Below are positions 1 through 26,481 of a stretch of 64,000 bases of DNA, in pieces. Origin of the DNA: Candidatus Woesearchaeota archaeon (GTDB lineage: Archaea > Nanobdellota > Nanobdellia > Pacearchaeales > GW2011-AR1); the NCBI GenBank assembly GCA_964466575.1, contig CAYXNP010000002.1, forward strand, positions 30,913-94,912, read 5' to 3'. Both the position numbers and the translations under genes were made by a program. Position 1 is the stretch's first letter, and each line of letters begins with the position of its first letter. Below the pieces are notes generated by a model. That model was not told the origin of the DNA, did no database searches, and saw only the letters and a program-made list of their open reading frames with translations.

Positions 1-1332
1 TTGGTTCCCATCGCCATGGAGCAAGATAAATACTTGCGAATGCTTCGTTTTGGATGCTGATTAAATCTTCAGGTGTTAAGTCTCCAACAGTCAATACAGC
101 AGCATTATATCGTCGGTATTGTGAAAAATCTTCTGTCATTAATTTCAATCCCTTTTCGCCTTTTTTTGCCATTTCAAAAAGCTCTGTCCCTGGATATGGA
201 ACTGCAATGCTAATATTTGCTTGTTTAATTTCTTTTGATTTTCTTAAAAAGGCAAGTGTCTTTCTTACTGTTTCTTCTGTCTCGCCAGGAAGACCAATCA
301 TACATGAGTTTAATGTTTCTATATTATATTTATTGGTTAATTTGTTTGCAGTTTCATAACTTTCTAAAGGAACTAATTTTTTCATTGTGATTCTAATAGT
401 CTCATCAACAGATTCTAAACCAAACGAAAGCCTGATTAAACCAGCTTCTGCCATTTTAGCAATTAGTTCTTCGTCGACTAAATTTGAACGAGTGCTTCCT
501 TCCCACGTAATTCCTAAATTTTCTTTTATTATCAGGTCGCATATTTTCATTGTATGTTCTCTGCTTAATGTTAAGGTGTCGTCTAAAAACATAAAATGTT
601 CTGTGCCGTATTTTTCAATACATTCTTTCATTTCTTCAATAACTAATTCTGGGTCTTTTTTTCTTGTATCTTTTCCAAAAACTTTTGTGCTGCAAAATAT
701 GCAGTTAAATGGGCAACCACGCATTGTCATTATTGTTGTGAATTTTTTTATTCCTTGAATTGTTCCTAAATTGTATAATTCTGATTTAAGTAAATGTCTT
801 GAGGGTATTGGAATTGAATTGACGTCATGAACCGGCAAAGCCATTCCGGTAAATTTGATTTCGTTATTATCTCTATATATTATACCTTTAACTTGTGAAA
901 TGTCTTCCTTGTTTTCATATTTTTTTAAGAAATCTGGCCAAGAGTTGTCGCCTTCACCAATAAATGCATAATCAAAACAAGGTTCAAAAACTTTTTCTCT
1001 CAAGACAGTAATGTGTGGTCCGCCAATTGCAATAGGAACTGACGGCAATTCTTTTTTTAATTCATTTCCAAGTTCAACACAAATATGATAAAATGGTGTT
1101 GTGCCGGTAATTCCAATAACATTTGGAGCAAATTCTTTTGTTCTCTGAACTATCTCGTTAATTGAAATTCCTTCTGCTTCTCCGTCGATAATCTTGACTT
1201 CGTGTCCTTGTTTTTCAGCAATTGCTGCAAGATAAGCCAAGTTTAATGGCGGCCATTTACCTGCTTTTTTTGCGAAGTGAGCGATTTTTCCGTATGCTGA
1301 AGTCCATAATGGATACAAGAGCATTATTTTCA
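1..1332 (-). CDS. Cobalamin-binding-domain (class B) radical SAM enzyme. The C-terminus is truncated at the window edge.
   Basis: Manual translation of the minus strand from the ATG at 1332 gives MKIMLLYPLWTSAYGKIAHFAKKAGKWPPLNLAYLAAIAEKQGHEVKIIDGEAE...IGGPHITVL...MRGCPFNCIFCSTK...FLDDT. This is a Rossmann-like B12-binding N-domain followed by a CxxxCxxC cluster. It is missing from the ORF track because there is no stop codon inside the window, and the plus-strand ORFs at 54-359 and 387-758 are antisense artefacts. Confidence 0.8.
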
Positions 1333-1392
1333 TATTTTTAAGAAATTTGTTTTGTTTTTAAAAGTTGTTAAGTTGTGATATATTATATATAT

Positions 1393-1402
1393 CTTTATAA
1401 AT
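1393..1402 (+). promoter_or_regulatory. TATA-like box (ctttataaat) about 24 nt upstream of the ATG at 1422, in a divergent intergenic region. Likely an archaeal leaderless promoter.
   Basis: The sequence tttataaa is centred about 24 nt before the start codon and no SD-like motif lies between them. Archaeal TATA boxes sit about -26 from the TSS. Confidence 0.3.
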
Positions 1403-1421
1403 TATTATTCAACTAATTTTT

Positions 1422-2189
1422 ATGCCAGAAGAAAAAAGAATCATTGAAGCACAGCCCTCACTTGTAATAGCTTACTGTGAAAAAGGAAACAAGGTTCTTA
1501 CTTCTGTTTATGATGCTGGATATAGAAAAGGGAAAAGCCCATATGTTTTGACTCCAAATATTATTGGAGGAAATCCTGATTTAAAATATGTTAAAAATGG
1601 GCCATTAGAAGTTCTCGTTAGAGAGATTAATGAAGAATTTGATCCAGAATTTCAAATAGAACATCCAGATACAAATCAATTTAGACAGAGAGTTGCATGG
1701 GCAACACCAGAAGATATTGGTGTTGTTAGAAATGCTTTGTTTGAAGGTATAGAACCTTATCAGGATTTTTTTGTTGATGCTCAATCATTTAGAGAAGGAA
1801 CTGCAACTTACAAAGCGATTTATAGTTATTTCTTTTCAAACATATCTCCAGAAGTAATTGATGTTGTTGAGTCAAATCTTAGAAGACAAAAATCATTAAG
1901 TCCAGAAGGGCTTGTTGGAGTTTTTACATTAGAAGAATTGGAAAAAGACCCACGAGGAATGTTTGGCACGGCGCACATAACTGCTCCTGCATTAAATCAT
2001 TGTTTTGAAACAAATATTCCATACCCAGAAGAATACTTGAGGGTTTCTGTTGAAGGAATTCCAAGAGAATCTTATACAGGTTATCTTCTTGATTTTGAAT
2101 ATTCTAAAGTTAGAAAACCAAACCATAATGATCCTTCAAAAGAGGATCCAAGTTTTCATGAAGTTATTTTTGGTGTTGAAAAGGAATAA
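1422..2189 (+). CDS. Hypothetical protein, 255 aa, with no domain I can recognise.
   Basis: A clean ORF with an upstream TATA-like box. No diagnostic motif was identified. Confidence 0.4.
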   Translation: MPEEKRIIEAQPSLVIAYCEKGNKVLTSVYDAGYRKGKSPYVLTPNIIGGNPDLKYVKNGPLEVLVREINEEFDPEFQIEHPDTNQFRQRVAWATPEDIGVVRNALFEGIEPYQDFFVDAQSFREGTATYKAIYSYFFSNISPEVIDVVESNLRRQKSLSPEGLVGVFTLEELEKDPRGMFGTAHITAPALNHCFETNIPYPEEYLRVSVEGIPRESYTGYLLDFEYSKVRKPNHNDPSKEDPSFHEVIFGVEKE

Positions 2190-2281
2190 TTTTAATTTGA
2201 AAAATAGTTGCTTCGCAATAATTTAAGTTGATATAATTTGAGTTAACATTGTTTAAAAATGGTTTCGCAAAGGCGAGAAGT

Positions 2282-3595
2282 TTAAGGAAAATCTATACAC
2301 ATTGGATCTTCATCTAAAGAGCCCATTGCGATTTCTTCGATTTGTCGAGCGTATTCACCATAAGTGCATCTTCCGCATTCTGCATTAACACTTATTCCCT
2401 TAAGTAATTCTCTATGTTTATCTGTTCCCCAAAATTCAAGAATTTTTTCTGGATTTGGAAAATGAGAAGTTAGCTTAAATCGTTGTTCAATTCTGTGGTC
2501 AGCACAGACATAAACGTGGCCGTCAGCACATGCTTGCAACATTAATGGTGCGCATACACAATTTTTGAAAGTGTGTATTACTCTAAATTCAGGGTCGTAT
2601 TTGTGCATTATTGTAAATACTCTAAAGTTTTCACCGTCGCCGAGGTCATGGCACTTTTCAAATAGTTCGTGTATTTTTTCAATATTATAATTTAATTCCA
2701 TTGCGTTTTTGAAGTCTTTTCTTTCCAAATCTGCCGGTCTTGCATGAAAATCCCTAACACCAATATCTTTTGCAAGTTTGGCGGCTTCATAGACGTCATG
2801 CCAGTTGTCTGGACGAATTAGGAATTTAAATGCAATGTCAATTTTACTTCCTGTTTCTTGTTTTTTTCTCATTAATAGGCGGAGGTTTTCAATAACTCTT
2901 TTGTATGTGTTTCCATTTCCATTTTCGTCCCCCATTTCTCGTTTGAATAATTCTCTAATTTTGTTAAATATTATTTCATTATTAACGTCGACGCCATGCA
3001 CTTTTTCGTAACATTCTTTTACTTTGTCAAAAGTTATATCACTTTCACCAAATCCATGAACTTTGTCGAATACTTCTTTTGAACCAGAATCAACTGAAAC
3101 ACCCACCCAACGACAATGCATCATTTGATTTGCTATTTCTTCATTGATGATGCTCCCATTTGTTGCAAATGAACATTGCATTCCTTTGCTCTTAATATAT
3201 TCTGGAAGTTTCCAAACATTTCTATTCATTAAAGGTTCTCCGCCGCCACCTAAACAAACTCCTTTAACTCCCCACTTTGCCGCGAAATCGATTAAATTTT
3301 TCAGATGTTGTTCTGTCATTAATTTCATATCTTTTGGAACTTGCTCTGGATTTAATGTAAGGTATCGTTGAGCATTGCAATGCTCGCATTTATAATTACA
3401 AATATGTGCGGGGTCTAAAGAAAGTTCTATTGGCGGAGGTAACTGTACTCCTGGAACTCCTTTTAACCATTGGGCAATTGGTTTATAGTGCGTGTGATAA
3501 TAAATTAAACCCTTATAAGAATTAAATGAATTATACTTGCTTTTATCGTTCCACTCGCGCTCTTTTTTTCTTATGTCTATCATTTGATTTTTCAA
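2282..3595 (-). CDS. Radical SAM enzyme with a C-terminal SPASM-like Cys-rich domain.
   Basis: CNYKCEHCNAQ is a CxxxCxxC motif near residue 70 and GGGEPL is the glycine-rich SAM motif. The C-terminal cysteines (CVCAPLMLQACADGHVYVCADH...ECGRCTYGE) look like the auxiliary Fe-S cluster region of a SPASM or twitch domain. Confidence 0.75.
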   Translation of the reverse strand: MKNQMIDIRKKEREWNDKSKYNSFNSYKGLIYYHTHYKPIAQWLKGVPGVQLPPPIELSLDPAHICNYKCEHCNAQRYLTLNPEQVPKDMKLMTEQHLKNLIDFAAKWGVKGVCLGGGGEPLMNRNVWKLPEYIKSKGMQCSFATNGSIINEEIANQMMHCRWVGVSVDSGSKEVFDKVHGFGESDITFDKVKECYEKVHGVDVNNEIIFNKIRELFKREMGDENGNGNTYKRVIENLRLLMRKKQETGSKIDIAFKFLIRPDNWHDVYEAAKLAKDIGVRDFHARPADLERKDFKNAMELNYNIEKIHELFEKCHDLGDGENFRVFTIMHKYDPEFRVIHTFKNCVCAPLMLQACADGHVYVCADHRIEQRFKLTSHFPNPEKILEFWGTDKHRELLKGISVNAECGRCTYGEYARQIEEIAMGSLDEDPMCIDFP

Positions 3596-3694: not shown

Positions 3695-4198
3695 ATGATT
3701 ATAAACTTTGAAGATTTGTCAAAGATTAGAAATGAAAATATTAATAAAAAAATAGTTTTTTGTTCTGGAAGTTTTGATATTACTCATGTTGGGCATATTA
3801 TTTTTTTTGAAGAGTGTAATAAATATGGAAACATTCTTATTGTCGGTGTGGGAAGTGATAAAATGTTAAGATATCATAAGGGCGGCAATAGACCTATTTT
3901 AAATGAACATATACGATTGAAAACAATTGATAGCTTTAAGTGTGTTGATTATTCTTTTATTGATTCTGTATCTACGCCTGATGAACCTTTAATATTATTG
4001 AGATGTGTATTTGAGAGTTTAAAGCCAGATTTTTATTTAATTAACGATGATGCATTTGATATCCCCTATAGAGAAAGGGTTTGTGAGGAATTTAAAGTTA
4101 AATTGATTATATTAAAAAGGTGGTGCCCTCCTGAATTCGAAGATATTTCTACATCAAAAATAATAGAAAAAATAAAAAATTTAGATAAGAGTAATTAA
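3695..4198 (+). CDS. Cytidylyltransferase-like nucleotidyltransferase, resembling RfaE domain II or TagD with an HxGH motif.
   Basis: FCSGSFDITHVGH places the HxGH motif after a Gly-rich turn. The 167-aa size fits glycerol-3-P cytidylyltransferase or heptose-1-P adenylyltransferase domains. Confidence 0.65.
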   Translation: MIINFEDLSKIRNENINKKIVFCSGSFDITHVGHIIFFEECNKYGNILIVGVGSDKMLRYHKGGNRPILNEHIRLKTIDSFKCVDYSFIDSVSTPDEPLILLRCVFESLKPDFYLINDDAFDIPYRERVCEEFKVKLIILKRWCPPEFEDISTSKIIEKIKNLDKSN

Positions 4199-4238: not shown

Positions 4239-5705
4239 ATGGAGAAAATGTTGGATGTTCTTTTAGTTAATGCTGGAGGAATGAGAAAAAGAGTTTATCA
4301 GGAATTGAGCAGGGATTATTCTGCGATTGAGCCGCCATTTTGGGCTGCGTTGACTGCGGGTTTTGTTAGAAAAAAAGGATTTAGTGTTAAAATTCTCGAC
4401 GCTAATGCAGAAAATATTGATATTAAAGAAACAGTAGAGATAATAAAAGAACTTAATCCTAGATTTGTGAACATTATAGTTTATGGGCAACACCCTTCAG
4501 CATCAACCCAATTAATGGTTAGTGTTGGGAATTTATGCCGAGAAATAAAAAACAATGAACCCTTAAGAAAGATTTTATTGATAGGTTTGCATCCGTCTGC
4601 TTTGCCTGAAAAAACAATGAAGGAAGAAGTTTGTGATTATGTTTCGCAAGGAGAAGGATTTTATACAATTCTTGGATTATTGGAAAATAAAAACTTAAAT
4701 GAAATTCCTGGTTTGTGGTATAGGGAAAATAATTTAATAAAATCAAACGCGCCTGCTCCTTTAATTCAAGATTTAACAACTGAACTAAGTGATGTCGCTT
4801 GGGATTTACTGCCAATGGATAAATACAAAGCTCACAATTGGCATTGTTTGCATGATTTAGAATCGCGGGGAAGTTATGCTTCTTTATCAACAAGCTTGGG
4901 TTGCCCTTATAATTGTATTTTTTGCTGTATTAATTCGCCGTTTGGAAAATCTGGATATAGATGCTGGAGCCCTGAATGGGTATTGAAACAGCTTGATATT
5001 TTAGTTAAAGAATATAGTGTTAAAAATGTAAAGTTAATAGATGAACTGTTTGTTTTGAATCCGAAGCATTTTATGGAAATTTGCGACGGTGTTATTCAAA
5101 GAGGATATAAATTAAATTTTTGGGCTTATGCGAGGATTGATACTGTCAAGGAAGAACATTTAAGAAAAATGAAGCAAGCAGGAATTAATTGGCTTGCGTT
5201 AGGAATTGAATCTGCAAGTGAAGAAGTTAGGCAGGGTGCTGAGAAAGGCAGGTTTAATGAAACAGATATTGTAAATATTGTGAAAATGATTAAAGATGTT
5301 GATATTAATATTATTGGAAATTATATGTTCGGTTTGCCTGAAGATGATTTTCAATCAATGCAAGAAACATTAAAACTTTCTCTTGATTTAAATTGCGAGT
5401 TTGGGAATTTTTATTGTGCTTCTGCTTATCCTGGTTCAAAATTATATACTTGGGCAGTTGAAAATAATATTCAATTGCCAGAATCATGGGAAGGTTATGC
5501 TCAGCATAATTACAACTTTCTTTCTCTTCCAACAAAAACTTTGTCTCCCAAGGAGGTTCTTGAATATAGAGACTATGCTTTTGATGTTTATTTTAAGAAT
5601 CCAATATATTTGAAAATGATTGAAGAGCGATTTGGAATTGTTGCAAGAAAACATATTGAAGAAATGACAAAAATAAAATTGAAGAGAAAGTTGTTGGGCG
5701 ATTGA
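4239..5705 (+). CDS. Class B (B12-binding domain) radical SAM enzyme.
   Basis: The N-terminal segment VLLVNAGG...EPPFWAALTAGF...KILD resembles a cobalamin-binding fold. LGCPYNCIFCCIN is the CxxxCxxC motif, and the downstream region is a TIM-barrel-like domain of 488 aa. Confidence 0.85.
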   Translation: MEKMLDVLLVNAGGMRKRVYQELSRDYSAIEPPFWAALTAGFVRKKGFSVKILDANAENIDIKETVEIIKELNPRFVNIIVYGQHPSASTQLMVSVGNLCREIKNNEPLRKILLIGLHPSALPEKTMKEEVCDYVSQGEGFYTILGLLENKNLNEIPGLWYRENNLIKSNAPAPLIQDLTTELSDVAWDLLPMDKYKAHNWHCLHDLESRGSYASLSTSLGCPYNCIFCCINSPFGKSGYRCWSPEWVLKQLDILVKEYSVKNVKLIDELFVLNPKHFMEICDGVIQRGYKLNFWAYARIDTVKEEHLRKMKQAGINWLALGIESASEEVRQGAEKGRFNETDIVNIVKMIKDVDINIIGNYMFGLPEDDFQSMQETLKLSLDLNCEFGNFYCASAYPGSKLYTWAVENNIQLPESWEGYAQHNYNFLSLPTKTLSPKEVLEYRDYAFDVYFKNPIYLKMIEERFGIVARKHIEEMTKIKLKRKLLGD

Positions 5706-5759: not shown

Positions 5760-6473
5760 ATGGATTTTATTGAATATAATCAATTTGGAGAAGTTAAAAA
5801 AGAGATAAATGATCTGAAAATTAAAATGGATGAAATGAAATTAGTTCTTGAAAGAAATTTAAATAGTAATGGAAATGGTTTAACAAATCTGACAGCAGAG
5901 GATTTAATTGCTTTTGAAAATGACATTATTGAGATTTATGAAGCTGGAAAAATTAAGGCGCCTGTTCATTTTTGTAAAGGCAATGAAGAGCAACTTATTG
6001 AGATTTTTAAGAAAGTAGGAAAAGATGATTGGATTTTCTCGACGCATAGAAGTCATTATCATGCGTTATTAAAAGGTGTTGACCCATTGTGGTTGAAAAG
6101 AGAAATACTTGAAAAAAGAAGTATTCATATTAACAATAAAGAATATAAAACATTTACTTCTGCGATTGTCGGAGGAATTCTTCCTATTGCGCTTGGAGTT
6201 GCGCTTGCAATAAAACTAAAAAAAACAAACGAGAGAGTTTGGGCATTTGTCGGAGATATGTGTGCTGAAATGGGTGTTTTTCATGAATGTACAAAATATG
6301 CAAAAAGGCATAATTTGCCAATAACTTTTGTTGTAGAAGACAACAATTTAAGTGTTAACACTCCAACGCAAAAAGTTTGGGGTGAAAATGATTTTGGTAA
6401 TGCAAATATTATCAGATATAAATACAAAAGAATTTGTCCCCATCATGGTTCTGGAAAATGGGTGACTTTTTAA
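5760..6473 (+). CDS. Thiamine-diphosphate-dependent E1 alpha-like subunit (dehydrogenase E1 component family), minimal form.
   Basis: The TPP motif GDG-x26-NN reads VGDMCAEMGVFHECTKYAKRHNLPITFVVEDNN. HRSHYHAL resembles E1 alpha sequences. Confidence 0.7.
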   Translation: MDFIEYNQFGEVKKEINDLKIKMDEMKLVLERNLNSNGNGLTNLTAEDLIAFENDIIEIYEAGKIKAPVHFCKGNEEQLIEIFKKVGKDDWIFSTHRSHYHALLKGVDPLWLKREILEKRSIHINNKEYKTFTSAIVGGILPIALGVALAIKLKKTNERVWAFVGDMCAEMGVFHECTKYAKRHNLPITFVVEDNNLSVNTPTQKVWGENDFGNANIIRYKYKRICPHHGSGKWVTF

Positions 6474-6474
6474 A

Positions 6475-7035
6475 ATGAGTTACAAAGATGAAATAAAAAA
6501 AGCAATGACGATGTTAGGACAGCATCCGAAAACAATTTTTCTTGGACAAACAGTAGAATATTCTGGAAGTTGTATTTATGGGAGTTTAGAAGATGTTCCT
6601 AATGAAAAAAGAATTGAACTTCCAATTATCGAAGATACTCAAATGGGAATGTCTATTGGTTTAAGTTTGGAAGGATTTATTCCAATATCTATTTTTCCCA
6701 GGTTTGATTTTTTTATATGCGCTACTAATCAATTAGTAAATCACTTGGATAAAACTAGAGAGATGAGTAATGGGCGGTTTACTCCAAAAGTTATACTTAG
6801 AACAATGATAGGAGGTACAAATCCGCTTTATCCAGGAGTACAGCATTGTTCAGATTATACTGAAGCAATGAAACATTTTTTAAAAGATGTTGATGTTGTG
6901 AGTTTAACAAAAGAAGAAGATGTTATGTCTGTTTATAAAAGAGCTTTAGAAAGCGATAGGTCAACTTTAATTATTGAAGTAGCAGATTTATATAACGATG
7001 ATATTATTAGTGGTGAGAGAATAGGGAAGGATTAA
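6475..7035 (+). CDS. E1 beta-like / transketolase pyrimidine-binding-domain subunit, partner of 5760-6473.
   Basis: It starts 1 nt after the upstream stop. The size (186 aa) and sequence (IFLGQTVEYSGSCIYGS...PIIEDTQMGMSIGLS) fit a Transket_pyr-like domain. Confidence 0.6.
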   Translation: MSYKDEIKKAMTMLGQHPKTIFLGQTVEYSGSCIYGSLEDVPNEKRIELPIIEDTQMGMSIGLSLEGFIPISIFPRFDFFICATNQLVNHLDKTREMSNGRFTPKVILRTMIGGTNPLYPGVQHCSDYTEAMKHFLKDVDVVSLTKEEDVMSVYKRALESDRSTLIIEVADLYNDDIISGERIGKD

Positions 7036-7041: not shown

Positions 7042-7668
7042 ATGTTTAATGGAAAATTTGTTTGGTTGAAGGGTGCAATAAAAAAGTGGTTTTTGTTATT
7101 TGGTTATGAAATAGTTAAAGATAATAACGGCAATCATTTGAAGAAAATTTATTCTTCTAAATCTGCAATTCAGTTTATGAAAGAAAATTACAATAAAAAA
7201 GATTTAATTGTTGCTGAAATTGGGGTGTGGAAAGGTCACACTACAGAACATATAATAAAAACATTACCGATAAAAAGAATTTATGCAATTGATTCTTGGG
7301 CCCCTTGGAGTTCAAGTGAACATAACGAAGAAATAATTCAAACTGCAATGAAAGAAGCTAAAAAGAAGTTATCAAAATATGGCAATAAAGTCATCATCAT
7401 AAAAAAATATTCAAAAGACGCAGTTAAAGATATTAAAGAAAAATTAGATTTTGTTTATATTGATGGCGACCATGATTATGAATTTGTTAAAGACGACATT
7501 GAACAATATTATAAACTTTTAAAAAAAGGAGGGGTTTTGTCTGGTGATGATATTGAAAATAGAAGATTACCTAATGGAGTTTTCAAAGCATTATCTGAAT
7601 TTTCAGTTAAGAATAAATTAGATGTCAAAATTGAAGGGAATAATTGGTGGTTGATAAAACCGGATTAG
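7042..7668 (+). CDS. Class I SAM-dependent methyltransferase, in the O-methyltransferase or Methyltransf_24 family (TylF/MycF-like).
   Basis: The SAM-binding region LIVAEIGVWKGHTT and the DGDHDYEFVKDD motif are typical of this family. Confidence 0.65.
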   Translation: MFNGKFVWLKGAIKKWFLLFGYEIVKDNNGNHLKKIYSSKSAIQFMKENYNKKDLIVAEIGVWKGHTTEHIIKTLPIKRIYAIDSWAPWSSSEHNEEIIQTAMKEAKKKLSKYGNKVIIIKKYSKDAVKDIKEKLDFVYIDGDHDYEFVKDDIEQYYKLLKKGGVLSGDDIENRRLPNGVFKALSEFSVKNKLDVKIEGNNWWLIKPD

Positions 7669-16540: not shown

Positions 16541-17320
16541 ATGGTTGTTTCGTTAACTATTGATACTGAAGAAGACCTTCATTCAAAAACGTATGTAAGT
16601 CTGAATTATGGCATTCCAAAGATATTAAAAATTTGTGATAGGTTTGAGATTAAACTGACGTTTTTTGTTCCAGCTATGCTTCTAGAAAAGTTTCCTGTTC
16701 TTTTCAAAGATTTAAGAAATAAAGGGCACGAGATTGCGTTGCATGGTTATGAACATGAGAGATTTGATGAACTTTCTTTTAATGAAAAAGAAAAACGAAT
16801 TATAAAATCAATTTTAGTATATAGAGAGATATTTAATGAAAATCCAAAGGGGTTTAGGGCGCCGCAACACTCTATTGATAATGAAACTTTAGGTTTGTTG
16901 AGCAAATATGGTTTTTCTTATGACTCGTCATATACACCGTTTAATTTATTGCAGTTACTTTTTTTCCCAAAGAAAATCAAGTTATTTATTGAAGGTTTCT
17001 TTAAACCTAGAAAGATTTTCTTTATTAAAAAAAACTTATATGAAATTCCGGTGTCTGGATTTCTTATTGCTTTTGTATCACTTCCTTTAAGAATTTTTCC
17101 TAAGCCGATTTTAAGATTATATTTATCAATTCTGAAATTAACAAATAAAGATTTAGTTTTTTATGCACATTCATGGGATTTTATTAAATTGCCTAATAGC
17201 AGAATAGATAAAATATTTAGCCATAAAAAATTGATGAAAAATCTTGAACTGATGATAAAATATTTGGTTAAAAAAAATAAATTTTTAACAATGGAGCAAA
17301 TTGCAAATGAAAATTCTTGA
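16541..17320 (+). CDS. Polysaccharide deacetylase of the CE4/NodB-like family.
   Basis: SLTIDTEED, ALHGYEHERF (HxxH) and FRAPQHS (similar to RPPYG) are the NodB motifs. Confidence 0.6.
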   Translation: MVVSLTIDTEEDLHSKTYVSLNYGIPKILKICDRFEIKLTFFVPAMLLEKFPVLFKDLRNKGHEIALHGYEHERFDELSFNEKEKRIIKSILVYREIFNENPKGFRAPQHSIDNETLGLLSKYGFSYDSSYTPFNLLQLLFFPKKIKLFIEGFFKPRKIFFIKKNLYEIPVSGFLIAFVSLPLRIFPKPILRLYLSILKLTNKDLVFYAHSWDFIKLPNSRIDKIFSHKKLMKNLELMIKYLVKKNKFLTMEQIANENS

Positions 17321-18496: not shown

Positions 18497-20041
18497 ATGA
18501 GAATAATTCTTATATCGGCTGCGACGTTTCCGTCTGACCAAGGAATCAGAACTATTTCGGCAATTTTGAAAAAAGCTGGACACGACGTGAAAATCGTTTT
18601 TATGGCTTATTCAGAAGATTATTCCAAATTTTATCATAATAGGGAATTAAATCAATTAGTAAATATCTGCAAAAATGCAGATTTGATTGGAGTTAATTGT
18701 TATGTTTCGACTATGCCCCGAGCGATTCAAATTACAGGATTTTTGAAAAAGAAATTAAAAAAAGAAATTCCGATTGTTTGGGGTGGAATTCATCCGACGC
18801 TTTTTCCTCAAGATTGCATTAAATATGCAGACATTGTTTGCGTTGGCGACGGCGAAGATGCTGTTTTAGATTTGGCGAAGGCCATTGAAAATAAAAAACC
18901 AATTGATAAAATTCAAAACTTGTGGGTTAAAGATAAAAATGGTGAGATAGTAAAAAATCCTGTCCGTCCATTTATTGATAATCTTGATACTCTGCCTTTT
19001 GTGGATTACGATATAGAAGACCATTACATTTTGGAAAATCACAATTTGAGAAAATTTAAAGAAGAAGATTTGAATGGCCAAATATTCTTTTTGACAGGAA
19101 GGGGCTGTCCTTATGGCTGTACTTATTGCAGCAATAATCTTTTGAATGAGTTGTATAAAGGCAAATGCAAATCAATTGTAAGGTGGCACAGTGTCGACTA
19201 TATTATTGAGCATGTTTTATATTTAAAAAAACGATTTAAAACTTTGAGTTACTTTGATATTAGGGATGATACTTTTTCTTTGAGACCATTGAGCCAGATT
19301 CAGGAATTTTGTGAAAAGTATAAGGAAAAAGTTAATATGCGGTTCAAATGTCTTGGTGACCCGAAGACAATCTCTGAAGATAAAATTAAAGTTCTTGTCG
19401 ACGCTGGATGCACTGATATCATTATTGGAATCCAAGGCAATGAAAAAACTAACAGAGATATTTACAAAAGAGGGCAGACGAATGAACAAGTTTTGAAAGC
19501 CGGAAAAATTTTGAGTAAATACAAAAATAAATTGGCAGTGATGTATGATGTGATAACGTGCAATCCTTTTGAAGATGCGAAGGATGTAATTGACCTTATT
19601 CGACTTTTACAAATACTTCCTAAACCATATTATGTTTCTGTGAATAATCTGGTTTTTTTTCCTGGAACCGGCATTTATGAACGCGCCAAGATGAATCCTA
19701 AACTAAAAAAGATTGTTGAAGAAAGTTCTAAGTTAAATTATTGGGATAGGAATAAGCATATTTTATTGAAAAGGAAAGATATGTATCTTGTTTTGATTTT
19801 GAATTTAATGAGAGGTTCTGTGACTGAGAACAGATTTGGTTTAATGCCGAATAAATTAATTAATTATTTGTTAAAACCGTCGAGAATAAAATACAATTTA
19901 AATAATCCTGCTTTGACTTACATTGGATTGTCTTTTGTTAGTGTGATGGATTTAACGCGAGAAAGAATTGCGAAGCCGTTGTATCGTTCAACGCCGGTAA
20001 ATTTTAAAGTTTGGTATGATAAGATTCGTTATAGAGTTTAA
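18497..20041 (+). CDS. Class B (B12-binding domain) radical SAM enzyme.
   Basis: The N-domain reads IILISAATFPSDQG...VWGGIHPTLFP. GRGCPYGCTYCSNN is the CxxxCxxC motif. Confidence 0.85.
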   Translation: MRIILISAATFPSDQGIRTISAILKKAGHDVKIVFMAYSEDYSKFYHNRELNQLVNICKNADLIGVNCYVSTMPRAIQITGFLKKKLKKEIPIVWGGIHPTLFPQDCIKYADIVCVGDGEDAVLDLAKAIENKKPIDKIQNLWVKDKNGEIVKNPVRPFIDNLDTLPFVDYDIEDHYILENHNLRKFKEEDLNGQIFFLTGRGCPYGCTYCSNNLLNELYKGKCKSIVRWHSVDYIIEHVLYLKKRFKTLSYFDIRDDTFSLRPLSQIQEFCEKYKEKVNMRFKCLGDPKTISEDKIKVLVDAGCTDIIIGIQGNEKTNRDIYKRGQTNEQVLKAGKILSKYKNKLAVMYDVITCNPFEDAKDVIDLIRLLQILPKPYYVSVNNLVFFPGTGIYERAKMNPKLKKIVEESSKLNYWDRNKHILLKRKDMYLVLILNLMRGSVTENRFGLMPNKLINYLLKPSRIKYNLNNPALTYIGLSFVSVMDLTRERIAKPLYRSTPVNFKVWYDKIRYRV

Positions 20042-20045
20042 CACG

Positions 20046-20951
20046 ATGAGAACATTGATAATAAAACTTGGTGCAATAGGCGATGTAGTTAGAACGACGG
20101 TTCTTTTAAGAGAGCTCGAAGGAGAAATATATTGGTTAACCAAAAAACACTCCAAAGATTTTTTAAATTCTGACAGAATTTCTCAAATTTACTTTATGGA
20201 GGATGAAAATAATCTTAATGAATTAAAGAATAAAGAATTTGATTTAGTTATTAATTTAGAGGAGGATATGGGGGTTTTAAAATTATTGAAACAAATTAAG
20301 ATGAGGAGGATGATTGGTGTATTTTTAGATGAAGAAAATAAGATTGATTATTCGCCTGAAAGCAAATATTGGTTTGATATGTCCAGGATAAGCAAATTCG
20401 GTTTATTAGACGCTGATCAATTAAAAAAAGAAAATAAAAAATCTGTTCCGCAAATTTATATTGAAATGATTGGGAAAGAATTTCATGGACAGGAATATGA
20501 TGTTGGTATTGAGCCGAAGCCAATCGATGAAGTTAAGGGAAAAATTGGATTGATTAATGTTACAACTAGTTTTTGGAAAAACAAATATTGGAATGGCTAT
20601 GATGAACTGGATTATGTTCTTAAAGAGAAAGGTTATGATGTTAATTTTTTAGAAATGCGAGACACATTGAAAGAGCATATAAATGATATTAATAATTGTG
20701 AGGTTGTTGTTTGCGGAGACACATTTGGAATGCATGCTGCGTTGGCTTTGAAAAAGAAAGTTGTTGCTATATTTAATTGCACACCGCCTGATGAAATTTA
20801 TCCCTATGATAGGATGATTAAAATTAAAAGTCCCATGTATGATAAATATTTTTTAAAAAAAGAACCGAGCATGAAAGCAATGTCAGCTGTTTCTGTAGAA
20901 GAAGTATATAGTGCAGTTGAGGAAATTTTAAAAGGTTCTGAAAAAAAGTAA
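20046..20951 (+). CDS. GT9-like (heptosyltransferase-family) glycosyltransferase.
   Basis: MRTLIIKLGAIGDVVRTTVLLREL matches the GT9 N-terminus and VVCGDTFGMHAALAL matches the C-terminal motif. The start was moved to the internal ATG at 20046 to avoid a 26-nt overlap with the upstream gene. Confidence 0.6.
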   Translation: MRTLIIKLGAIGDVVRTTVLLRELEGEIYWLTKKHSKDFLNSDRISQIYFMEDENNLNELKNKEFDLVINLEEDMGVLKLLKQIKMRRMIGVFLDEENKIDYSPESKYWFDMSRISKFGLLDADQLKKENKKSVPQIYIEMIGKEFHGQEYDVGIEPKPIDEVKGKIGLINVTTSFWKNKYWNGYDELDYVLKEKGYDVNFLEMRDTLKEHINDINNCEVVVCGDTFGMHAALALKKKVVAIFNCTPPDEIYPYDRMIKIKSPMYDKYFLKKEPSMKAMSAVSVEEVYSAVEEILKGSEKK

Positions 20952-20953: not shown

Positions 20954-22141
20954 TTATACTACTTCAAAAATTAATTCTGCTGGGCCTTTTTGATAAAGTG
21001 TTTCGTCTACCATTTCTTTGTTTGCTTCTGGATTCATAGCTCCTTTATTTTTAATTCTTATAGTAGGATCTTTTGTTACATAACCAATTTGTTTTGCATC
21101 AATTCCATGAACTTTTGCAACACCAATAACTGCTTCTGGCTTTGGCGTGACGATTATCATTCCTTGTCCCATATTCCATGTTTTATATGCTTCTTCATCA
21201 GCTACATTTCCTAATGCTTGAGTATATAACATAAAGTCTGAAGGTTCAAAAGGTTCATCTATCACAGCCCCTAATCCAGAAGGTCTTAACACTCTTCCAA
21301 GTTTTCCTGGAACTCCTCCTCCTGTAATATGAGCAACTCCATGAATTTCAACTTTTGGTTCTCTGTCATATCCACCAAACATATCAACAACTGCAGCCGT
21401 ATAAATTTTCGAGGGAGTTAATGCTAAATCTGCTAAAGAATCATTACCAACTTTCCAAGAAACCTGATGCCAATTTTCTCCATGAGTATTTTTCATTATT
21501 CTTCTAACTAAAGATAATCCATTAGATCTGAATCCTTTTTCTCTTAATCCTACAAGCGAATCTCCTTCTTTAATTTCTCTTCCAGTAAACATTCTATCTT
21601 TTTTAGCAAACCAAATAACTGCTGCTCCCCAATTATAATTAAAATTTCCATAACCACTAACCCTATTCCCTAATTCTGCTACTTCTCCATTAACAATCGC
21701 AACATTTGCTGCTTTTGCAGCACCAATATATCCTTCTGCTAATTGTTTTACTTGCTCAATATAAATTTCATCTCCCCTTCCTAAAGAATTAACATCTAAT
21801 ATACTTCCAATTAAAACTGGCTCTGCGCCCCTAACAACAGCATCATCACATACCATTGCAAATAAGTCGTAAGCAATAGTTTTGTGGTTATTAACTCTTT
21901 CAGCTAATTCCATTTTAGTTCCAACGCCGTCAAATCCAATATTCATTAAAGTTCCAGCAGGTAAATTAGAAACATCAATAGCTCTAACTCCTGAAAAATC
22001 ATCAAAAGGAACAACCAATTCTCCTAATCTTCCTCTCCGATTATTCCATGTTTGTTTTGCAGCATTATATAAAATTTTAGAAACATCATCACCTAGCTCA
22101 ATATTAACTCCTGCTTCTGCATAAGTTGATTGTGTTGGCAT
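20954..22141 (-). CDS. purM: Phosphoribosylformylglycinamidine cyclo-ligase (AIR synthase).
   Basis: YAEAGVNIELGDD and GFDGVGTKMELAERVNNHKTIAYDLFAMVCDDAVVRGAEP align closely with E. coli PurM (DAGVDIDAGN...GTDGVGTKL...GIDLVAMCVNDLVVQGAEP). Confidence 0.85.
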   Translation of the reverse strand: MPTQSTYAEAGVNIELGDDVSKILYNAAKQTWNNRRGRLGELVVPFDDFSGVRAIDVSNLPAGTLMNIGFDGVGTKMELAERVNNHKTIAYDLFAMVCDDAVVRGAEPVLIGSILDVNSLGRGDEIYIEQVKQLAEGYIGAAKAANVAIVNGEVAELGNRVSGYGNFNYNWGAAVIWFAKKDRMFTGREIKEGDSLVGLREKGFRSNGLSLVRRIMKNTHGENWHQVSWKVGNDSLADLALTPSKIYTAAVVDMFGGYDREPKVEIHGVAHITGGGVPGKLGRVLRPSGLGAVIDEPFEPSDFMLYTQALGNVADEEAYKTWNMGQGMIIVTPKPEAVIGVAKVHGIDAKQIGYVTKDPTIRIKNKGAMNPEANKEMVDETLYQKGPAELIFEVV

Positions 22142-22272: not shown

Positions 22273-23160
22273 ATGATTTCAATAGTCATAACTTCTTTTA
22301 AAGAGCCAAAAACAATAGGCAAGGCAATTGAATCTTTTTTGAATCAGGAAATTAGGGAGGAATATGAATTATATGTTGCTGCGCCTGATGAAGAGACTTT
22401 GAATGTTGCGCGAAGTTATCAGAATAAGAATAAAAATCTGAAATTATTTACTGACCCTGGAAAAGGAAAAAGTTATGCGATGAATTTAATTCTTCCTAAA
22501 TTAAAAGGAGATATTTTCATTTTTAGCGACGGTGATGCTTATGTTTCTGAAAATTCGGTTAATGAACTTGTTAGGTTTTTTGATGATGATAATGTTGGTT
22601 GTGTTTCAGGAAGACCGGTTTCTCAAAATTCCAGAATAGATTTATTTGGATATTGGAGCCATATGTTATGTTATGCTGCTCACAAATTAAGAGAAAAAAG
22701 AAATGAGCAAGATAGGTTTCTTGAATGTTCTGGTTATTTATGGGCGTTTAGAAAAGGCGTGATTAAAAAATTTCCAGTCCATATTGCCGAGGACACGATT
22801 GTTCCAATTTTCTTTTGGTTGAATGGATATAAAATTAAGTATGCATCAAAAGCTTTAGTTTATGTTAAGTTTCCTGTTAATATGAAAGATTTTTTGAAAC
22901 AAAAACGTAGAGCTGCTGCATCTCATGGAACAATTTATCGGTATGTTAATCCGAAAAAAATTCCGCGAATGAAAACCCTGTCAAACGAGATTATTGAATC
23001 ATATCATGTTTTTGAATATCCTGAAAATTTGAAAGAATTTTTTTATACTATGCAATTATTTCCATTGAGACTTTACATTTGGCTTAATCTTGCGTTTAAT
23101 GAAAAGATTAGAAATAGGTATTATACTGATGCATGGAAGAGGGTGGGAAGTACGAAATAA
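22273..23160 (+). CDS. GT2-family glycosyltransferase.
   Basis: MISIVITSFKEPKTIGKAIESFLNQ and FSDGDAYV (a DxD motif) are typical of the family. Confidence 0.75.
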   Translation: MISIVITSFKEPKTIGKAIESFLNQEIREEYELYVAAPDEETLNVARSYQNKNKNLKLFTDPGKGKSYAMNLILPKLKGDIFIFSDGDAYVSENSVNELVRFFDDDNVGCVSGRPVSQNSRIDLFGYWSHMLCYAAHKLREKRNEQDRFLECSGYLWAFRKGVIKKFPVHIAEDTIVPIFFWLNGYKIKYASKALVYVKFPVNMKDFLKQKRRAAASHGTIYRYVNPKKIPRMKTLSNEIIESYHVFEYPENLKEFFYTMQLFPLRLYIWLNLAFNEKIRNRYYTDAWKRVGSTK

Positions 23161-23188: not shown

Positions 23189-24775
23189 ATGGATGAGGTA
23201 AAAGAGATTGTTGAGAAAAAAAGAGATATTAAATTGAAAATTAAGGCTTGGCTTAAAGATTATGAAAATATTGTTTTGCTGGCGGTTTTAATTTTCGCTT
23301 TTGCACTTAGATGGCAATTTTTTATCTTAACAAAAAATCAGCCGTTTTGGTGGGATGAAGCGAGTTATGGGATTATTGCGAAGAGTTTTATTTCGAACAC
23401 ATTTGATTCAAATACGTTAGTTATTAATGAGATAATTATTAGGCCATTATTGCTTTCAATTATGTGGGCGGGTTTGATGTTAATGGAAATGCCTGAACAT
23501 TGGAGCAAATTTATTCTTGAGTTTATACCTTCGATTTTGTCTGTTTTTTTTGTGTATTTGGTTGGAAAGGAGATTTACAATAAAAGGGTCGGGATTATTT
23601 CAGCGTTTATTTTTTCTGTAATATGGATTCATCTTTTTTATACGATGAGGTTTTTGACAGATGTCCCTCAATTAGTTTTTTTATTCTCAAGTATTTACTA
23701 TTTTATTCTTGCTACAAAAAAAGAATTTGATTATAAATATTTCTCAATTTCATTATTCCTGCTTTCTTTAGGTACATTAATGAAGTATCCCAATGGAATG
23801 GTTTTTGTGATTTATTTTATTATATTGTTATTTGGAAAGCAGCTTTATTTAAATAAGAAAAAGTTTTGGTATTGTGGAATTGCAGGAGTTTCGCCGATGT
23901 TGCTCGCAGTGTTACTTAATTATTTTTTAAGTGGTGATTTTATTTCCAGGTTTATTGGAGCGAATTTTGGAAATGCGTCGGAACAAGTTGCCAGACCAAT
24001 TGCATACAATCTTTTGAATTACATCTCCATATATCTGCAAAATATTTTCTTTCTTCTTTTTTTGATTGGTTGTGCAATACTTTTATTTGAAGCTTTTATT
24101 AGATATAATTATATTTTTAAAAATAAGAAATTAAGAGATTCTTTACTTTTGGCTTTGATTATGATAGCTTTCTTCTCGTTTTTTATTTTTTATTTGAGAA
24201 GTGCTGATGATAGGTATTTCTTGCCGACGACAATTACGATGAGCATTTTTGCAGGTTTTGGTTTGGGTTATATATATGATCTTTTGAGAAAGTATCATCA
24301 AATTTTTGCGATTCTTGTTATTGTAGTGATTTTGTTTTTTGGAGCAAAAGCGCAAATAAAACAAGCAGATGATATAATTAAATTAAGAAGCGAAAGTTTT
24401 TTACAAATAAAACAAGGAATGTTATGGTTGAAAGCGAATGCTCCTGCTGGAAGCGAGATTGTTGGAATTGGTTTGGACCCGTATGCTATTTATTATGGTG
24501 ATATTAATATGACGTCGGATATTACAGAAAATGATTCTGTTAGAATTAATAATGCAGATTATTTAATTGTTCATGTTTTTCCGCCCGAGAATTTTTTAAT
24601 GCAATATGTCCAGGATAATCAGGATGTGTGGCAACCGATTAATGGCTTTTTCTTGGATAAGGAAAATACACAGGCGGGTTTAATAATTTATAAGAATACT
24701 GGGAAGAAGATTGATGCTGGTGAAGAATTAATTTCTAGTGAGGAAAATACTCTGCTCACAAGTTCGCAAGAATAA
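23189..24775 (+). CDS. Polytopic GT-C fold membrane glycosyltransferase, PMT/ArnT-like (GT39/GT83).
   Basis: At least ten predicted TM helices. The first extracytoplasmic loop carries FWWDEASYG, the acidic DE motif typical of PMT/ArnT enzymes. Confidence 0.55.
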   Translation: MDEVKEIVEKKRDIKLKIKAWLKDYENIVLLAVLIFAFALRWQFFILTKNQPFWWDEASYGIIAKSFISNTFDSNTLVINEIIIRPLLLSIMWAGLMLMEMPEHWSKFILEFIPSILSVFFVYLVGKEIYNKRVGIISAFIFSVIWIHLFYTMRFLTDVPQLVFLFSSIYYFILATKKEFDYKYFSISLFLLSLGTLMKYPNGMVFVIYFIILLFGKQLYLNKKKFWYCGIAGVSPMLLAVLLNYFLSGDFISRFIGANFGNASEQVARPIAYNLLNYISIYLQNIFFLLFLIGCAILLFEAFIRYNYIFKNKKLRDSLLLALIMIAFFSFFIFYLRSADDRYFLPTTITMSIFAGFGLGYIYDLLRKYHQIFAILVIVVILFFGAKAQIKQADDIIKLRSESFLQIKQGMLWLKANAPAGSEIVGIGLDPYAIYYGDINMTSDITENDSVRINNADYLIVHVFPPENFLMQYVQDNQDVWQPINGFFLDKENTQAGLIIYKNTGKKIDAGEELISSEENTLLTSSQE

Positions 24776-24994
24776 TGTGGATTTTTCCAGAGCAAGATTC
24801 TACAAAGAAATATTGTTAATACTTAATATCTAAAAAGCATTGTTACTCAGTACTTTAACTTAAAATTTTATTAATAACGCGAATGAAATGAGCGCTAATT
24901 TAATATAAAATAATTTTAGATTATAAAATAAAATAGATAAGTAAAGATAATAATGTTCATAATATGCGAATATATAATCATCCTCAATAATCCT

Positions 24995-25004
24995 TATAAA
25001 ATAT
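24995..25004 (+). promoter_or_regulatory. TATA-like box (ttataaaata) about 21 nt upstream of the ATG at 25021, inside a 245-bp AT-rich intergenic region.
   Basis: Position and sequence fit an archaeal leaderless promoter. No SD motif is present. Confidence 0.3.
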
Positions 25005-25020
25005 AGTTAGAAGTAATTTT

Positions 25021-26481
25021 ATGAAAAGAAAGATTTATTTGGTTTATCCGCATGAAAAAACGCATTTTGTGCGGCTGTCTTTGTCTTTACTTAGTGTTGC
25101 GTCGACATTAGAGCCGGCTGGGTATGATGTTAAAATAATTGACATGAGATTTCAAGATCACTTGAAGGTTAATTTTTCAGATGCTCTTTTTGTTGGTTTG
25201 ACGAGTTTTACTGGAAGTAACTTGAAATCTGGATTAGAATTCTCAAGATATATCAAGAAAAAATATCCGAAGGTGCCGATTGTTTGGGGGGGTGTTCATG
25301 CTTCGATTTTGTCAATTCAGACAATTAGGAATGAGAATGTAGATATTATTGTTCGTGGCGAGGGCGACGTAACTGTTGTAGAGCTTGCTGATGCTTTATC
25401 TAAGGGAAAACCATTGAATAAAATAAATGGACTGACATTTAAAGATAAAGACGGCAAGATTGTTAATACGCCTGAAAGGGAATTTATTGATATGAATAAA
25501 CTGCCGAAGCCAGCATATCATCTTGTTGATTTGACTAAGGCTGAGACAACTCTTGGGCATTTTCCTTATAATGGGAGCCGAGGTTGTCCGCACAGATGCA
25601 AGTTTTGTTTTAATGTTAATTTTCATAAACGAAAATGGAGGGGAGTTACTGCTGAGAGAACTTTGGATGATATAGAGGATATAATTAGAGTTTCCGGAGC
25701 AAAGGGAATTGAATTTACAGAAGATAATTTTTTTACGAATAAGGAAAGGATTAGACAAATTGCGCAGGGTTTGATTGACAGGAAAATAAAAATTACTTGG
25801 GGGGCGGCTTGTCGAATGGATTATTTTGCTAAGTATGAAATTGAGTTTCTTAAGATGTTGAAGAGAAGTGGATTGGATTTAATGTCTGGCGGCGCAGAAT
25901 CAGGAAGTCAAAGAATTCTTGATTTGGTTGATAAGGATATAAAAGTTGAGGATACGATTGTTGCTGTTGCTAAGGCGAAAGAAGCGGGAATTATTCCGTG
26001 CTTGAGTTTTATTTATGGTGTTCCTAGTGAAACAAAAGAAGATGTTTTCAAGACGCTGAATTTGATTGATAAGTTAAAGAAAATAAATCCTGACACGCAG
26101 GTTAATGGAATTTTTGCGTTTACGATTTATCCTGGAGATCCGCTTGTTGAAGATTGTAAGAAGTTGGGATATAAAGAACCAAAGTCGTTGGAAGGTTGGG
26201 CGAATCATAATCTTTCTGATTTTAATACGCAGGTTTGGTTGAATAAAAAAGAGATTGCTTGGCTTGAGACGATTGGCGACATAATTCGGTTTGATTATTT
26301 TAATCAGACTGGAAGAGTTTATGATAATCTGAATGTGAAGTGGCATTATATTCCTTATTTGATTATGAGAGCTGTTTATACTGTTTCTGCGAGATTGAGA
26401 TGGAGACTAAGATATTTTCATCATGCATATGAATGGAGACTTTGGAGTTGGGTTAAGGAAAAGTATCTGGGGCATTTTTAG
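25021..26481 (+). CDS. Class B (B12-binding domain) radical SAM enzyme.
   Basis: The N-domain reads IYLVYPHEKT...VWGGVHASI. SRGCPHRCKFCFN is the CxxxCxxC motif. Confidence 0.85.
   Translation: MKRKIYLVYPHEKTHFVRLSLSLLSVASTLEPAGYDVKIIDMRFQDHLKVNFSDALFVGLTSFTGSNLKSGLEFSRYIKKKYPKVPIVWGGVHASILSIQTIRNENVDIIVRGEGDVTVVELADALSKGKPLNKINGLTFKDKDGKIVNTPEREFIDMNKLPKPAYHLVDLTKAETTLGHFPYNGSRGCPHRCKFCFNVNFHKRKWRGVTAERTLDDIEDIIRVSGAKGIEFTEDNFFTNKERIRQIAQGLIDRKIKITWGAACRMDYFAKYEIEFLKMLKRSGLDLMSGGAESGSQRILDLVDKDIKVEDTIVAVAKAKEAGIIPCLSFIYGVPSETKEDVFKTLNLIDKLKKINPDTQVNGIFAFTIYPGDPLVEDCKKLGYKEPKSLEGWANHNLSDFNTQVWLNKKEIAWLETIGDIIRFDYFNQTGRVYDNLNVKWHYIPYLIMRAVYTVSARLRWRLRYFHHAYEWRLWSWVKEKYLGHF

Follow-up and report, generated by a model that had tools for sequence, protein, structure and literature searches.

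What does an archaeon make with a cluster of radical S-adenosylmethionine (SAM) enzymes set among glycan genes? The question is raised by a stretch of 64,000 nucleotides (~31% G+C; hereafter the window) on contig CAYXNP010000002.1 of a Candidatus Woesearchaeota archaeon, in which an island at 1-28.3 kb carries eight radical SAM genes (R1 to R8). Pfam confirmed an earlier, sequence-only reading that these genes are interleaved with genes for GT2, GT4 and GT9 glycosyltransferases (two of the last), methyltransferases, a sulfotransferase and a polysaccharide deacetylase; a PMT_2 glycosyltransferase and a nucleotidyltransferase are further partners. We consider, with a probability of about 0.72, that the island serves a DPANN-type archaeon in the biosynthesis of a surface glycan, its unusually many radical SAM enzymes modifying the sugar intermediates at carbon. 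This archaeon probably makes unusual carbon-modified surface sugars, because two of the enzymes, R1 and R3, belong to a sugar-nucleotide pathway common to many bacteria; independent links to carbohydrate chemistry were obtained for at least four enzymes (R1, R3, R4 and R6).

A six-frame listing of open reading frames (ORFs) in the window contains nine with a CxxxCxxC motif, present exactly once in each, and all nine are uninterrupted. Membership in the radical SAM superfamily was judged by this motif lying within a PF04055 core above the gathering score (29.5 bits), and all nine match with 46-96 bits (E 7e-12 to 3e-27). They are the nine genes named by the sequence-only reading, the first (R1) lying on the minus strand at 2-1333, shifted by one base from the earlier 1-1332. 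Six of them had been counted as class B enzymes, for which we looked for an N-terminal Rossmann B12-binding domain (PF02310, cut-off 32.1 bits) ahead of the radical SAM core. This domain was detected in R1, R3, R5, R7 and R8 (50-76 bits), whereas R2, R4, R6 and the ninth protein, R9 (34502-35842), gave no match above threshold, so that by domain content the class B set within the window numbers five, not six. R2, R4 and R6 are instead of the type with a SPASM/twitch or Cys-rich C-terminus: SPASM (PF13186) scores 77 bits in R6 and 22.1 bits in R4 (cut-off 21.5), while R2, which has no Pfam match to PF13186, carries seven C-terminal cysteines (346, 348, 356, 364, 407, 410 and 433). The five class B proteins are only 23-32% identical to one another, each having closer orthologues elsewhere; such distant paralogues are distinct functions rather than decaying copies, and the earlier observation that the motifs are intact holds.

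The density of these genes is unusual. Eight of the 24 genes within 1-28.3 kb, a region of 96% coding density, encode radical SAM proteins, and the remaining 36 kb of the window add one further radical SAM gene only. The sequence-only reading had placed all nine in one glycan island; eight do lie at 1-26.5 kb, but R9 falls within a phage/mobile-like insert at 28.6-35.8 kb. Incidental clustering, the island being a mosaic of unrelated genes in a compact genome, would accommodate the PurM-like and pyruvate-kinase-like genes found inside it as well as the unrelated R9. However, the binomial tail for 8 of 24 genes is ~1e-8 at an assumed background rate of 2%, and the order R1, R2, R3, the α and β subunits of a thiamine pyrophosphate (TPP) enzyme resembling pyruvate dehydrogenase E1 (E1α, E1β), methyltransferase, R4, R5, GT9 and sulfotransferase is kept in related archaeal contigs at 60-85% protein identity. 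Moreover, natural fusions join radical SAM domains to TPP and to GT2 domains. Synteny and fusions together largely refute chance clustering, which we find hardly credible.

Genes identical to those of the island occur on four further contigs (L086-L089, from run SRR1658343 and the 'ANAN16-1' assemblies), and an identical copy of R4 is protein P0121; judging from the sample names, these contigs derive from Rifle aquifer groundwater. The window cuts R1 at its edge, removing the C-terminus of a protein that is 480 amino acids long on L086. To the left of window position 1, the same contig encodes an additional B12-binding radical SAM protein of 511 amino acids (R0, L086:19830-21365), a paralogue of R7 at 49% identity in which PF02310 is likewise present, followed by a Glyco_trans_1_2 glycosyltransferase. 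With R0 extending it leftward, the complete island holds nine radical SAM genes in ~30 kb, of which six have the class B architecture. Two of these population variants of the island carry split genes, R5 being in two ORFs on one (L087:8465-9882) and R6 in two ORFs on another (L088:1092-2119), which reflects either strain-level inactivation or assembly error. The nearest named homologues are in metagenome-assembled genomes of Pacearchaeota, Woesearchaeota and 'Nanoarchaeota', which indicates a DPANN archaeon as the source.

Two of the four links to sugars come from R1 (B12-binding and Radical_SAM domains; Pfam, NCBIfam) and R3 (4239..5705, plus strand; Pfam, context), both class B-type proteins. 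R3 is the core of a conserved cross-domain sugar-nucleotide cassette. It has more than 7000 homologues, the top 120 being at least 58% identical, and a scan of one genome per species returned at least 590 relatives, the 80 best at least 48% identical. Its carriers are a few DPANN archaea and many bacteria (Nitrospirota, Planctomycetota, Cyanobacteria, Verrucomicrobiota, Omnitrophota, Proteobacteria and others), among them Ca. Brocadia and Scalindua (Planctomycetota) and Azospirillum cavernae (Proteobacteria). In 50 loci of at least 15 kb, the neighbors of the R3 homologue, mostly co-directional with it, include an epimerase/dehydratase of the short-chain dehydrogenase/reductase (SDR) family (44 loci), a GHMP kinase and a nucleoside triphosphate (NTP)-transferase (38 loci each), a DegT-family enzyme (35), and the E1β-like (26) and E1α-like (20) subunits. 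In four proteins (P0004, P0005, P0008, P0064) R3 is naturally fused to an E1α-like TPP domain, and on contig L004 the R3-E1α fusion is encoded between a polysaccharide flippase and an E1β-like gene. The operon of the cyanobacterium Floridaenema fluviatile is instructive: it encodes, in order, an SDR, an HddC-like NTP-transferase, GmhB, GmhA, a Nudix protein, an HddA-like kinase, an Fcl-like SDR, E1α, E1β, an RfbH-like DegT, R3 and a glycosyltransferase, and its GmhB passes the curated cut-off. This is the logic of GDP-glycero-manno-heptose synthesis followed by tailoring steps, and the pairing of a 3-dehydrase with an enzyme for two-carbon branching is similar to the route to yersiniose.

R1 behaves similarly. 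Its family is 61-82% identical over the top 120 matches, which come from DPANN, Methanoregula, Methanoperedens, Kiritimatiellia, Omnitrophota and Margulisiibacteriota. A Methanoregula contig carries orthologues of both R3 (53%) and R1 (75%) with a GHMP kinase, an NTP-transferase, DegT, SIS and HAD proteins and a third class B enzyme, and a Kiritimatiellia contig carries R1 (65%) and R3 (46%) orthologues with GT2, DegT, a split transketolase and PMT_2. Cassettes in bacteria have GT2, GT4, PMT_2 and polysaccharide genes at their flanks. Several of the bacterial loci around R3 hold three to seven radical SAM genes, hence multi-radical-SAM sugar loci are recurrent and not peculiar to the source archaeon.

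Two further observations concern these families. In Methanoregula and Kiritimatiellia, the R1 orthologues are immediately preceded by a small helical ORF of 59-63 amino acids that overlaps them and has the motif 'AEYE.L' in common (L090:3697-3876, L091:7813-8004); no counterpart was found in the window. Among anammox bacteria, contigs of Scalindua (L043) and Ca. Brocadia pituitae (L054) carry the R3 cassette. The S-layer O-glycan of Kuenenia contains an unidentified 'dimethylated deoxyhexose' and a methylated HexNAc, reported without a gene link (PMC5088730), and a connection between this methylated glycan and the anammox cassette is possible.

Immediately around R3, the window encodes several partner proteins. 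Upstream lies a nucleotidyltransferase (3695..4198, plus strand; PF01467 CTP_transf_like, 57.6 bits), which the sequence-only reading had called a cytidylyltransferase; a nucleotidyltransferase it is, but one rather like RfaE domain II, a heptose-1-phosphate adenylyltransferase type (TIGR02199 rfaE_dom_II, 77.8 bits, under the cut-off of 181.5), pointing to sugar-1-phosphate activation. Downstream, on the same strand, follow a short E1α-like TPP-binding subunit (PP domain) of 237 amino acids (5760..6473; PF00676 60.7 bits, TIGR03182 95.5 bits, below cut-off), in which the TPP-type motif GD..(x)..EDNN is kept, and a short E1β-like subunit (Pyr domain) of 186 amino acids (6475..7035; Transket_pyr 24.7 bits, just below cut-off; NF006667 54.6 bits), whose gene is conserved beside the E1α-like gene in relatives. 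Full-length versions of both subunits sit in nucleoside diphosphate (NDP)-sugar operons of relatives, and the adjacency of an α (PP) and a β (Pyr) gene within a sugar-nucleotide pathway is the arrangement of AviB1/AviB2. Next to the pair lies a class I SAM methyltransferase (7042..7668, plus strand; Methyltransf_24, TylF-like, by Pfam) that is syntenic in L001-L003. R2 (2282..3595, minus strand; Pfam Radical_SAM), of the auxiliary-cluster type, likewise belongs to this neighborhood: its homologues (59-63% identical) lie within a few kilobases of an R3 homologue in seven contigs (L004, L005, L007, L008, L010, L011, L012), immediately beside it in several of these. Among solved structures R2 matches MoaA only, and weakly.

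Two other interpretations of this group were set aside. A phosphonate pathway, with Fom3- and Ppd-like roles for the trio of nucleotidyltransferase, radical SAM protein and TPP enzyme, was dropped: the subunits are E1-like, not Ppd-like, there is no phosphoenolpyruvate mutase, and the relatives lie in heptose-type sugar operons. That the TPP enzyme is a housekeeping transketolase supplying sedoheptulose is unlikely, since bacteria, which presumably have a housekeeping transketolase of their own, keep a dedicated cassette copy, fused to R3 in some genomes.

R4 and R6 supply the other links to carbohydrates. In R4 (7665..9692, minus strand; Pfam), a GT2 domain at the N-terminus is joined to a radical SAM/SPASM domain, an architecture shared by ~40 protein clusters down to 25% identity; in relatives of the radical SAM half, the fusion partner is UDP-galactopyranose mutase. 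R6 (15462..16481, minus strand), a radical SAM protein with a SPASM/twitch domain, has as its top solved relative BtrN, a radical SAM enzyme that dehydrogenates an aminocyclitol (E 6e-18), and matches BlsE weakly. R5 (9811..11196, plus strand; Pfam, NCBIfam) is a class B-type protein that adjoins R4 in L001-L003 and L006 at 74-85% identity. R7 (18497..20041, plus strand; Pfam) and R8 (25021..26481, plus strand; Pfam) are also class B-type, the former with a 63% identical homologue in L007, the latter with OxsB as nearest solved structure (E 1e-16). R5 and R7 show only weak matches to the solved MgmA (9ccb) and TokK.

Comparison with solved structures places these proteins near enzymes of sugars and cyclitols. 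The top PDB sequence match of R1 (E 6e-26) and R3 (E 1.5e-13) is AprD4, and an AlphaFold (AF2) model of R3 (mean local confidence, pLDDT, 90.4) has AprD4 as best fold match (template modeling score, TM, 0.73-0.78), followed by MgmA, TsrM, OxsB, CysS and TokK. The top relatives AprD4 (R1, R3), OxsB (R8) and BtrN (R6) all act on sugars or cyclitols, whereas the solved methylases TokK, CysS and TsrM are weak matches only. The carbon-modified surface sugars proposed by the sequence-only reading are thus backed by context, namely operons, fusions and solved neighbors, but C-methylation, which it had named as one possibility, is not, R1 and R3 being closest to the non-methylating AprD4. Assignment to characterized families by profile hidden Markov models, which that reading had suggested as a check, failed for all nine proteins in NCBIfam, as none reaches a curated cut-off and R9 has no match at all. 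For the AprD4 model (NF033070, cut-off 500), R1 scores 115 bits, R3 76 and R8 44; the best other scores are 189 bits for BchE (cut-off 481), 168 for HpnJ (578) and 125 for the ladderane-lipid B12 radical SAM protein (360). None of the HpnJ, BchE, HpnR, ladderane-lipid B12 radical SAM, PhpK, TsrM, MgmA and BzaD equivalogs was matched at cut-off, and models for GenK and Fom3 are absent among the NCBIfam matches listed.

These partial scores could be taken to mean that the enzymes tailor membrane lipids instead of glycans, forming tetraether rings or bridges or calditol-like or hopanoid-like head groups: HpnJ, HpnR and the ladderane-lipid protein are among the best partial matches, and glycosyltransferases would also be needed for lipid-linked head-group sugars. 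Yet the scores lie 3- to 5-fold under cut-off, so that no radical SAM protein qualifies for a hopanoid or ladderane family, and no PDB match named as a tetraether synthase (GDGT-MAS, for which a structure exists there) was returned at E <= 0.001 in searches with R1-R8. The orthologues of R1 and R3 lie inside NDP-sugar operons of bacteria without archaeal lipids, and DPANN archaea generally lack lipid synthesis. The substrate of HpnJ is itself a sugar head group, and the resemblance to HpnJ is for this reason compatible with sugar chemistry. Lipid tailoring is therefore highly improbable in our judgment.

Maturation of a ribosomally synthesized and post-translationally modified peptide (RiPP), or modification of a protein, with the glycosyltransferases glycosylating the product, would find some footing in partial NCBIfam matches to ApyD, rSAM_ocin_1 and SPASM peptide maturases, in SkfB as the solved structure nearest to the radical SAM part of R4, and in the small ORF ahead of R1 orthologues in L090 and L091. 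The NCBIfam matches are, however, far under cut-off (for ApyD, 177 bits versus 750). A search for RiPP precursors in the island gave no credible candidate, the sole gap above 200 bp being without a credible small ORF, and with glycan genes interleaved at such coding density there is no room for precursor peptides. Neither a protease nor a transporter typical of RiPP clusters was detected by Pfam, and the R1 and R3 orthologues are found within sugar-nucleotide operons in dozens of genomes. Peptide maturation is very unlikely on this evidence.

If the chemistry concerns sugars, the product might still be a secondary metabolite that is glycosylated and diffusible, of an aminoglycoside-like or nucleoside-like kind, and not a surface glycan. 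The nearest solved structures do come from antibiotic pathways (AprD4, BtrN, OxsB, TokK, CysS), and the avilamycin and paulomycin pathways include known E1-like branching enzymes (PMC4425429). Against this stand the GT-C enzyme PMT_2, the GT9 genes, a flippase and AglB in the neighborhood, and the bacterial cassettes bordered by GT2, GT4, PMT_2 and polysaccharide genes. No aglycone or aminocyclitol genes were found, and the cassette occurs in hundreds of lineages that are not related to one another, a distribution typical of cell-surface loci. We regard a diffusible metabolite as unlikely and retain a surface glycan as the probable product.

Several points weigh against the surface-glycan interpretation or limit its reach. 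As no enzyme attains a curated family cut-off, no reaction can be assigned, and similarity to solved structures amounts to just 13-20% identity in structure-based alignments. The paper on the AprD4 structure reportedly found the fold present and the cobalamin cofactor absent, AprD4 being a non-methylating diol dehydratase; a B12-binding Pfam match alone is consequently no proof of cobalamin use, and a DPANN archaeon would have to import its cobalamin. R5, R7 and R8 are assigned a sugar role by association alone, and the island is linked to AglB by proximity only. GmhA, HddA, GmhB and DegT, partners of R1 and R3 elsewhere, are missing from the window, so the substrate here may differ, and the PurM-like and pyruvate-kinase-like genes inside the island are possibly housekeeping. 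In sum, the sugar interpretation is supported by context, not chemistry, and the particular radical reactions are not readable from sequence.

With these reservations, a pathway can be proposed. A heptose-like sugar-1-phosphate would be activated by the RfaE-II-like nucleotidyltransferase and oxidized to a keto-sugar, for which the BtrN-like R6 is a candidate. The short E1α/β TPP enzyme would then decarboxylate pyruvate, which the adjacent pyruvate-kinase-like protein may supply, and place the two-carbon unit on the keto-sugar, as proposed for AviB1/AviB2 and Pau11/Pau12. R1 and R3, the latter putatively in complex with the E1α-like subunit, may perform radical chemistry on the same intermediate, resulting in cobalamin-dependent C-methylation or in an AprD4-like deoxygenation or rearrangement. 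GT9, GT4, GT2 and PMT_2 enzymes would build the glycan on a lipid carrier, with R4 coupling transfer to radical modification, and the methyltransferases, the sulfotransferase, the deacetylase and a FemAB-like enzyme could decorate it by methylation, sulfation, deacetylation and amino-acylation. Finally, the neighboring AglB machinery or a GT-C enzyme might attach the glycan to surface proteins or lipids. A broader proposal, which we hold tentatively and at less than even odds, is that a pathway shared by archaea and bacteria uses a TPP two-carbon transferase complexed with R3, together with R1, to convert NDP-heptose-type precursors into undescribed C-branched, C-methylated or deoxygenated higher-carbon sugars, the DPANN version being a surface-glycan factory of nine radical enzymes in which a glycosyltransferase-radical SAM fusion modifies the glycan during transfer.

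The remaining genes of the island largely suit glycan assembly and decoration. A conserved protein of 255 amino acids (1422..2189, plus strand) has no Pfam or NCBIfam match and has homologues at 32-45% identity in L001-L003 and L010. Beyond R5, on the minus strand, lie a glycosyltransferase of the heptosyltransferase family GT9 (11191..12273; PF01075), syntenic in L001-L003, and the sulfotransferase (12311..13021; PF00685, 33 bits), syntenic in L001 and L006. The pyruvate-kinase-like gene (13106..14170, plus strand) encodes a pyruvate kinase barrel without the C-terminal domain (PF00224 227.6 bits; TIGR01064 273 bits, cut-off 306) and has a homologue adjoining the sulfotransferase in L006. It is followed by a protein with a FemAB-like N-terminal region and a class I SAM methyltransferase domain (14159..15460, minus strand; pepcterm_femAB 33 bits, Methyltransf_25 85 bits). 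Past R6 come the polysaccharide deacetylase (16541..17320; PF01522) and the GT4 glycosyltransferase (17301..18452; PF00534, 119.7 bits), both on the plus strand, as are the second GT9-family gene (GT9b, 20016..20951; PF01075), whose start overlaps the 3' end of R7 by 26 nt, the GT2 glycosyltransferase (22273..23160; profile match) and PMT_2 (23189..24775; PF13231, 60 bits), a membrane glycosyltransferase of the ArnT/PMT-like GT-C type that uses lipid-linked sugar donors. The PurM-like protein, of the aminoimidazole ribonucleotide (AIR)-synthase family, is encoded at 20954..22141 on the minus strand (TIGR00878 207.7 bits, cut-off 236); it and the pyruvate-kinase-like protein may be housekeeping or recruited, and the membership of both is uncertain. 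So is that of the gene at the right border (26545..28317, plus strand), which encodes an FGE-sulfatase (SUMF1-like) domain protein (PF03781, 141 bits).

To the right of the island, the insert at 28617-35842 has a composition of its own (AT skew +0.16 to +0.20) and encodes a Cas4-like PD-(D/E)XK nuclease (phrog_31195, 134 bits), a nucleotidyltransferase, an SNF2 helicase (phrog_62, 347 bits; ZorD-like) and ParB-like paralogues at 30412-31461 and 33316-34431. R9, which consists of a radical SAM core only, matches phrog_9298; in a profile comparison with the R3 family its residues 151-360 align and its N-terminus is unmatched, and no close relatives were found in a viral contig collection. R9 is outside the glycan island and unrelated to glycans. 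Between the insert and a DEAD-box helicase, at 36357-37058 on the minus strand, a DUF2283 protein and an ORF of 108 amino acids may form a small toxin-antitoxin-like pair.

Beyond the insert, 11 kb from the island, lies a canonical N-glycosylation (agl) cluster (39083..49359, minus strand) with GT4, GT2, PMT_2, methyltransferase, GT2, flippase, AglH-like glycosyltransferase and AglB/STT3 genes. AglB/STT3 (46402-49359, minus strand) has the WWDYG motif at residue 687, in agreement with the archaeal origin given by the sequence-only reading; together with the AglH-like Glycos_transf_4 protein (45379-46398, minus strand) as priming glycosyltransferase and the Polysacc_synt flippase (44148-45425, minus strand), it makes up an Agl system. 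A separate glycan-processing run at 51104-62091 encodes a GH130 phosphorylase, a glucosamine-6-phosphate-isomerase-like protein, a GT4 glycosyltransferase, a PMT_2/PTPS-related membrane protein, GH3 and a GH100/GDE-like glycosidase. No tRNA or rRNA genes were found within the window.

Radical SAM tailoring of sugars is known almost solely from antibiotic pathways. The same kind of chemistry appears to be conserved in cell-surface glycan loci of both archaea and bacteria, across hundreds of uncultured lineages and a few that have been cultured. R1 and R3 are thereby two sharply defined and highly conserved targets for enzymology, with Azospirillum cavernae, the Floridaenema cyanobacterium and Methanoregula as tractable hosts. 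The pathway may account for unidentified 'methylated' or branched sugars in environmental S-layer and extracellular polysaccharide glycans, and for DPANN archaea, which rely on cell-cell contact with a host, surface-sugar chemistry likely matters for attachment or virus evasion.

The closest known systems are of several kinds. The class B radical SAM enzymes GenK, GenD1, Fom3 and MoeK5 tailor sugars in antibiotic pathways and, like those of the island, combine an N-terminal Rossmann B12-binding domain with a CxxxCxxC core and are set among genes for sugar activation or transfer; in contrast to them, the island enzymes belong to a surface-glycan locus, number up to six per locus and include, in R1 and R3, highly conserved cross-domain families of their own. 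AprD4, the radical SAM 1,2-diol dehydratase of apramycin (PDB 6fd2), is the best solved match of R1 and R3 and acts on an aminosugar, but R3 is only ~18% identical to it in structural alignment and no AprD3-like partner reductase was identified. BtrN, HygY and DesII-type enzymes share with R6 a radical SAM core and a twitch/SPASM domain, although the match of R6 to BtrN is mainly across the auxiliary-cluster domain. AviB1/AviB2 and Pau11/Pau12 are E1-like pairs for a two-carbon branch on a 4-keto sugar (PMC4425429, PMC4753412), the activity of AviB1/AviB2 itself being a proposal (PMC4425429). They too are adjacent α (PP) and β (Pyr) TPP pairs inside a sugar pathway, yet the archaeal subunits are truncated (237 and 186 amino acids) and lack the C-terminal parts, the island-type pair is tied to a class B radical SAM enzyme, in some cases by fusion, and its scaffold is apparently heptose-like, not a 6-deoxyhexose. 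The likeness to the yersiniose route (YerE) lies in the RfbH-like 3-dehydrase-type DegT of the bacterial R3 cassettes.

The Agl pathways of Haloferax, Methanococcus and Sulfolobus resemble the cluster 11-21 kb downstream of the island in its AglB with WWDYG, AglH-like glycosyltransferase, flippase, GT2, GT4 and methyltransferase. We know of no described Agl pathway with radical SAM enzymes, nor of a described precedent for the R3-TPP and GT2-radical SAM fusions. A literature search for radical SAM enzymes in connection with DPANN, O-antigen, AglB/N-glycosylation or sugar operons returned nothing relevant, and no paper in the library searched joins them with AglB pathways, in line with the earlier statement that the island is not a described agl pathway. 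Taken singly, sugar tailoring by class B and twitch radical SAM enzymes is a known kind of chemistry, as is E1-like branching. No description appears to exist of the way they are combined, of the R3-TPP and GT2-radical SAM fusions, of conservation across both domains in surface-glycan loci or of such density beside an archaeal AglB cluster.

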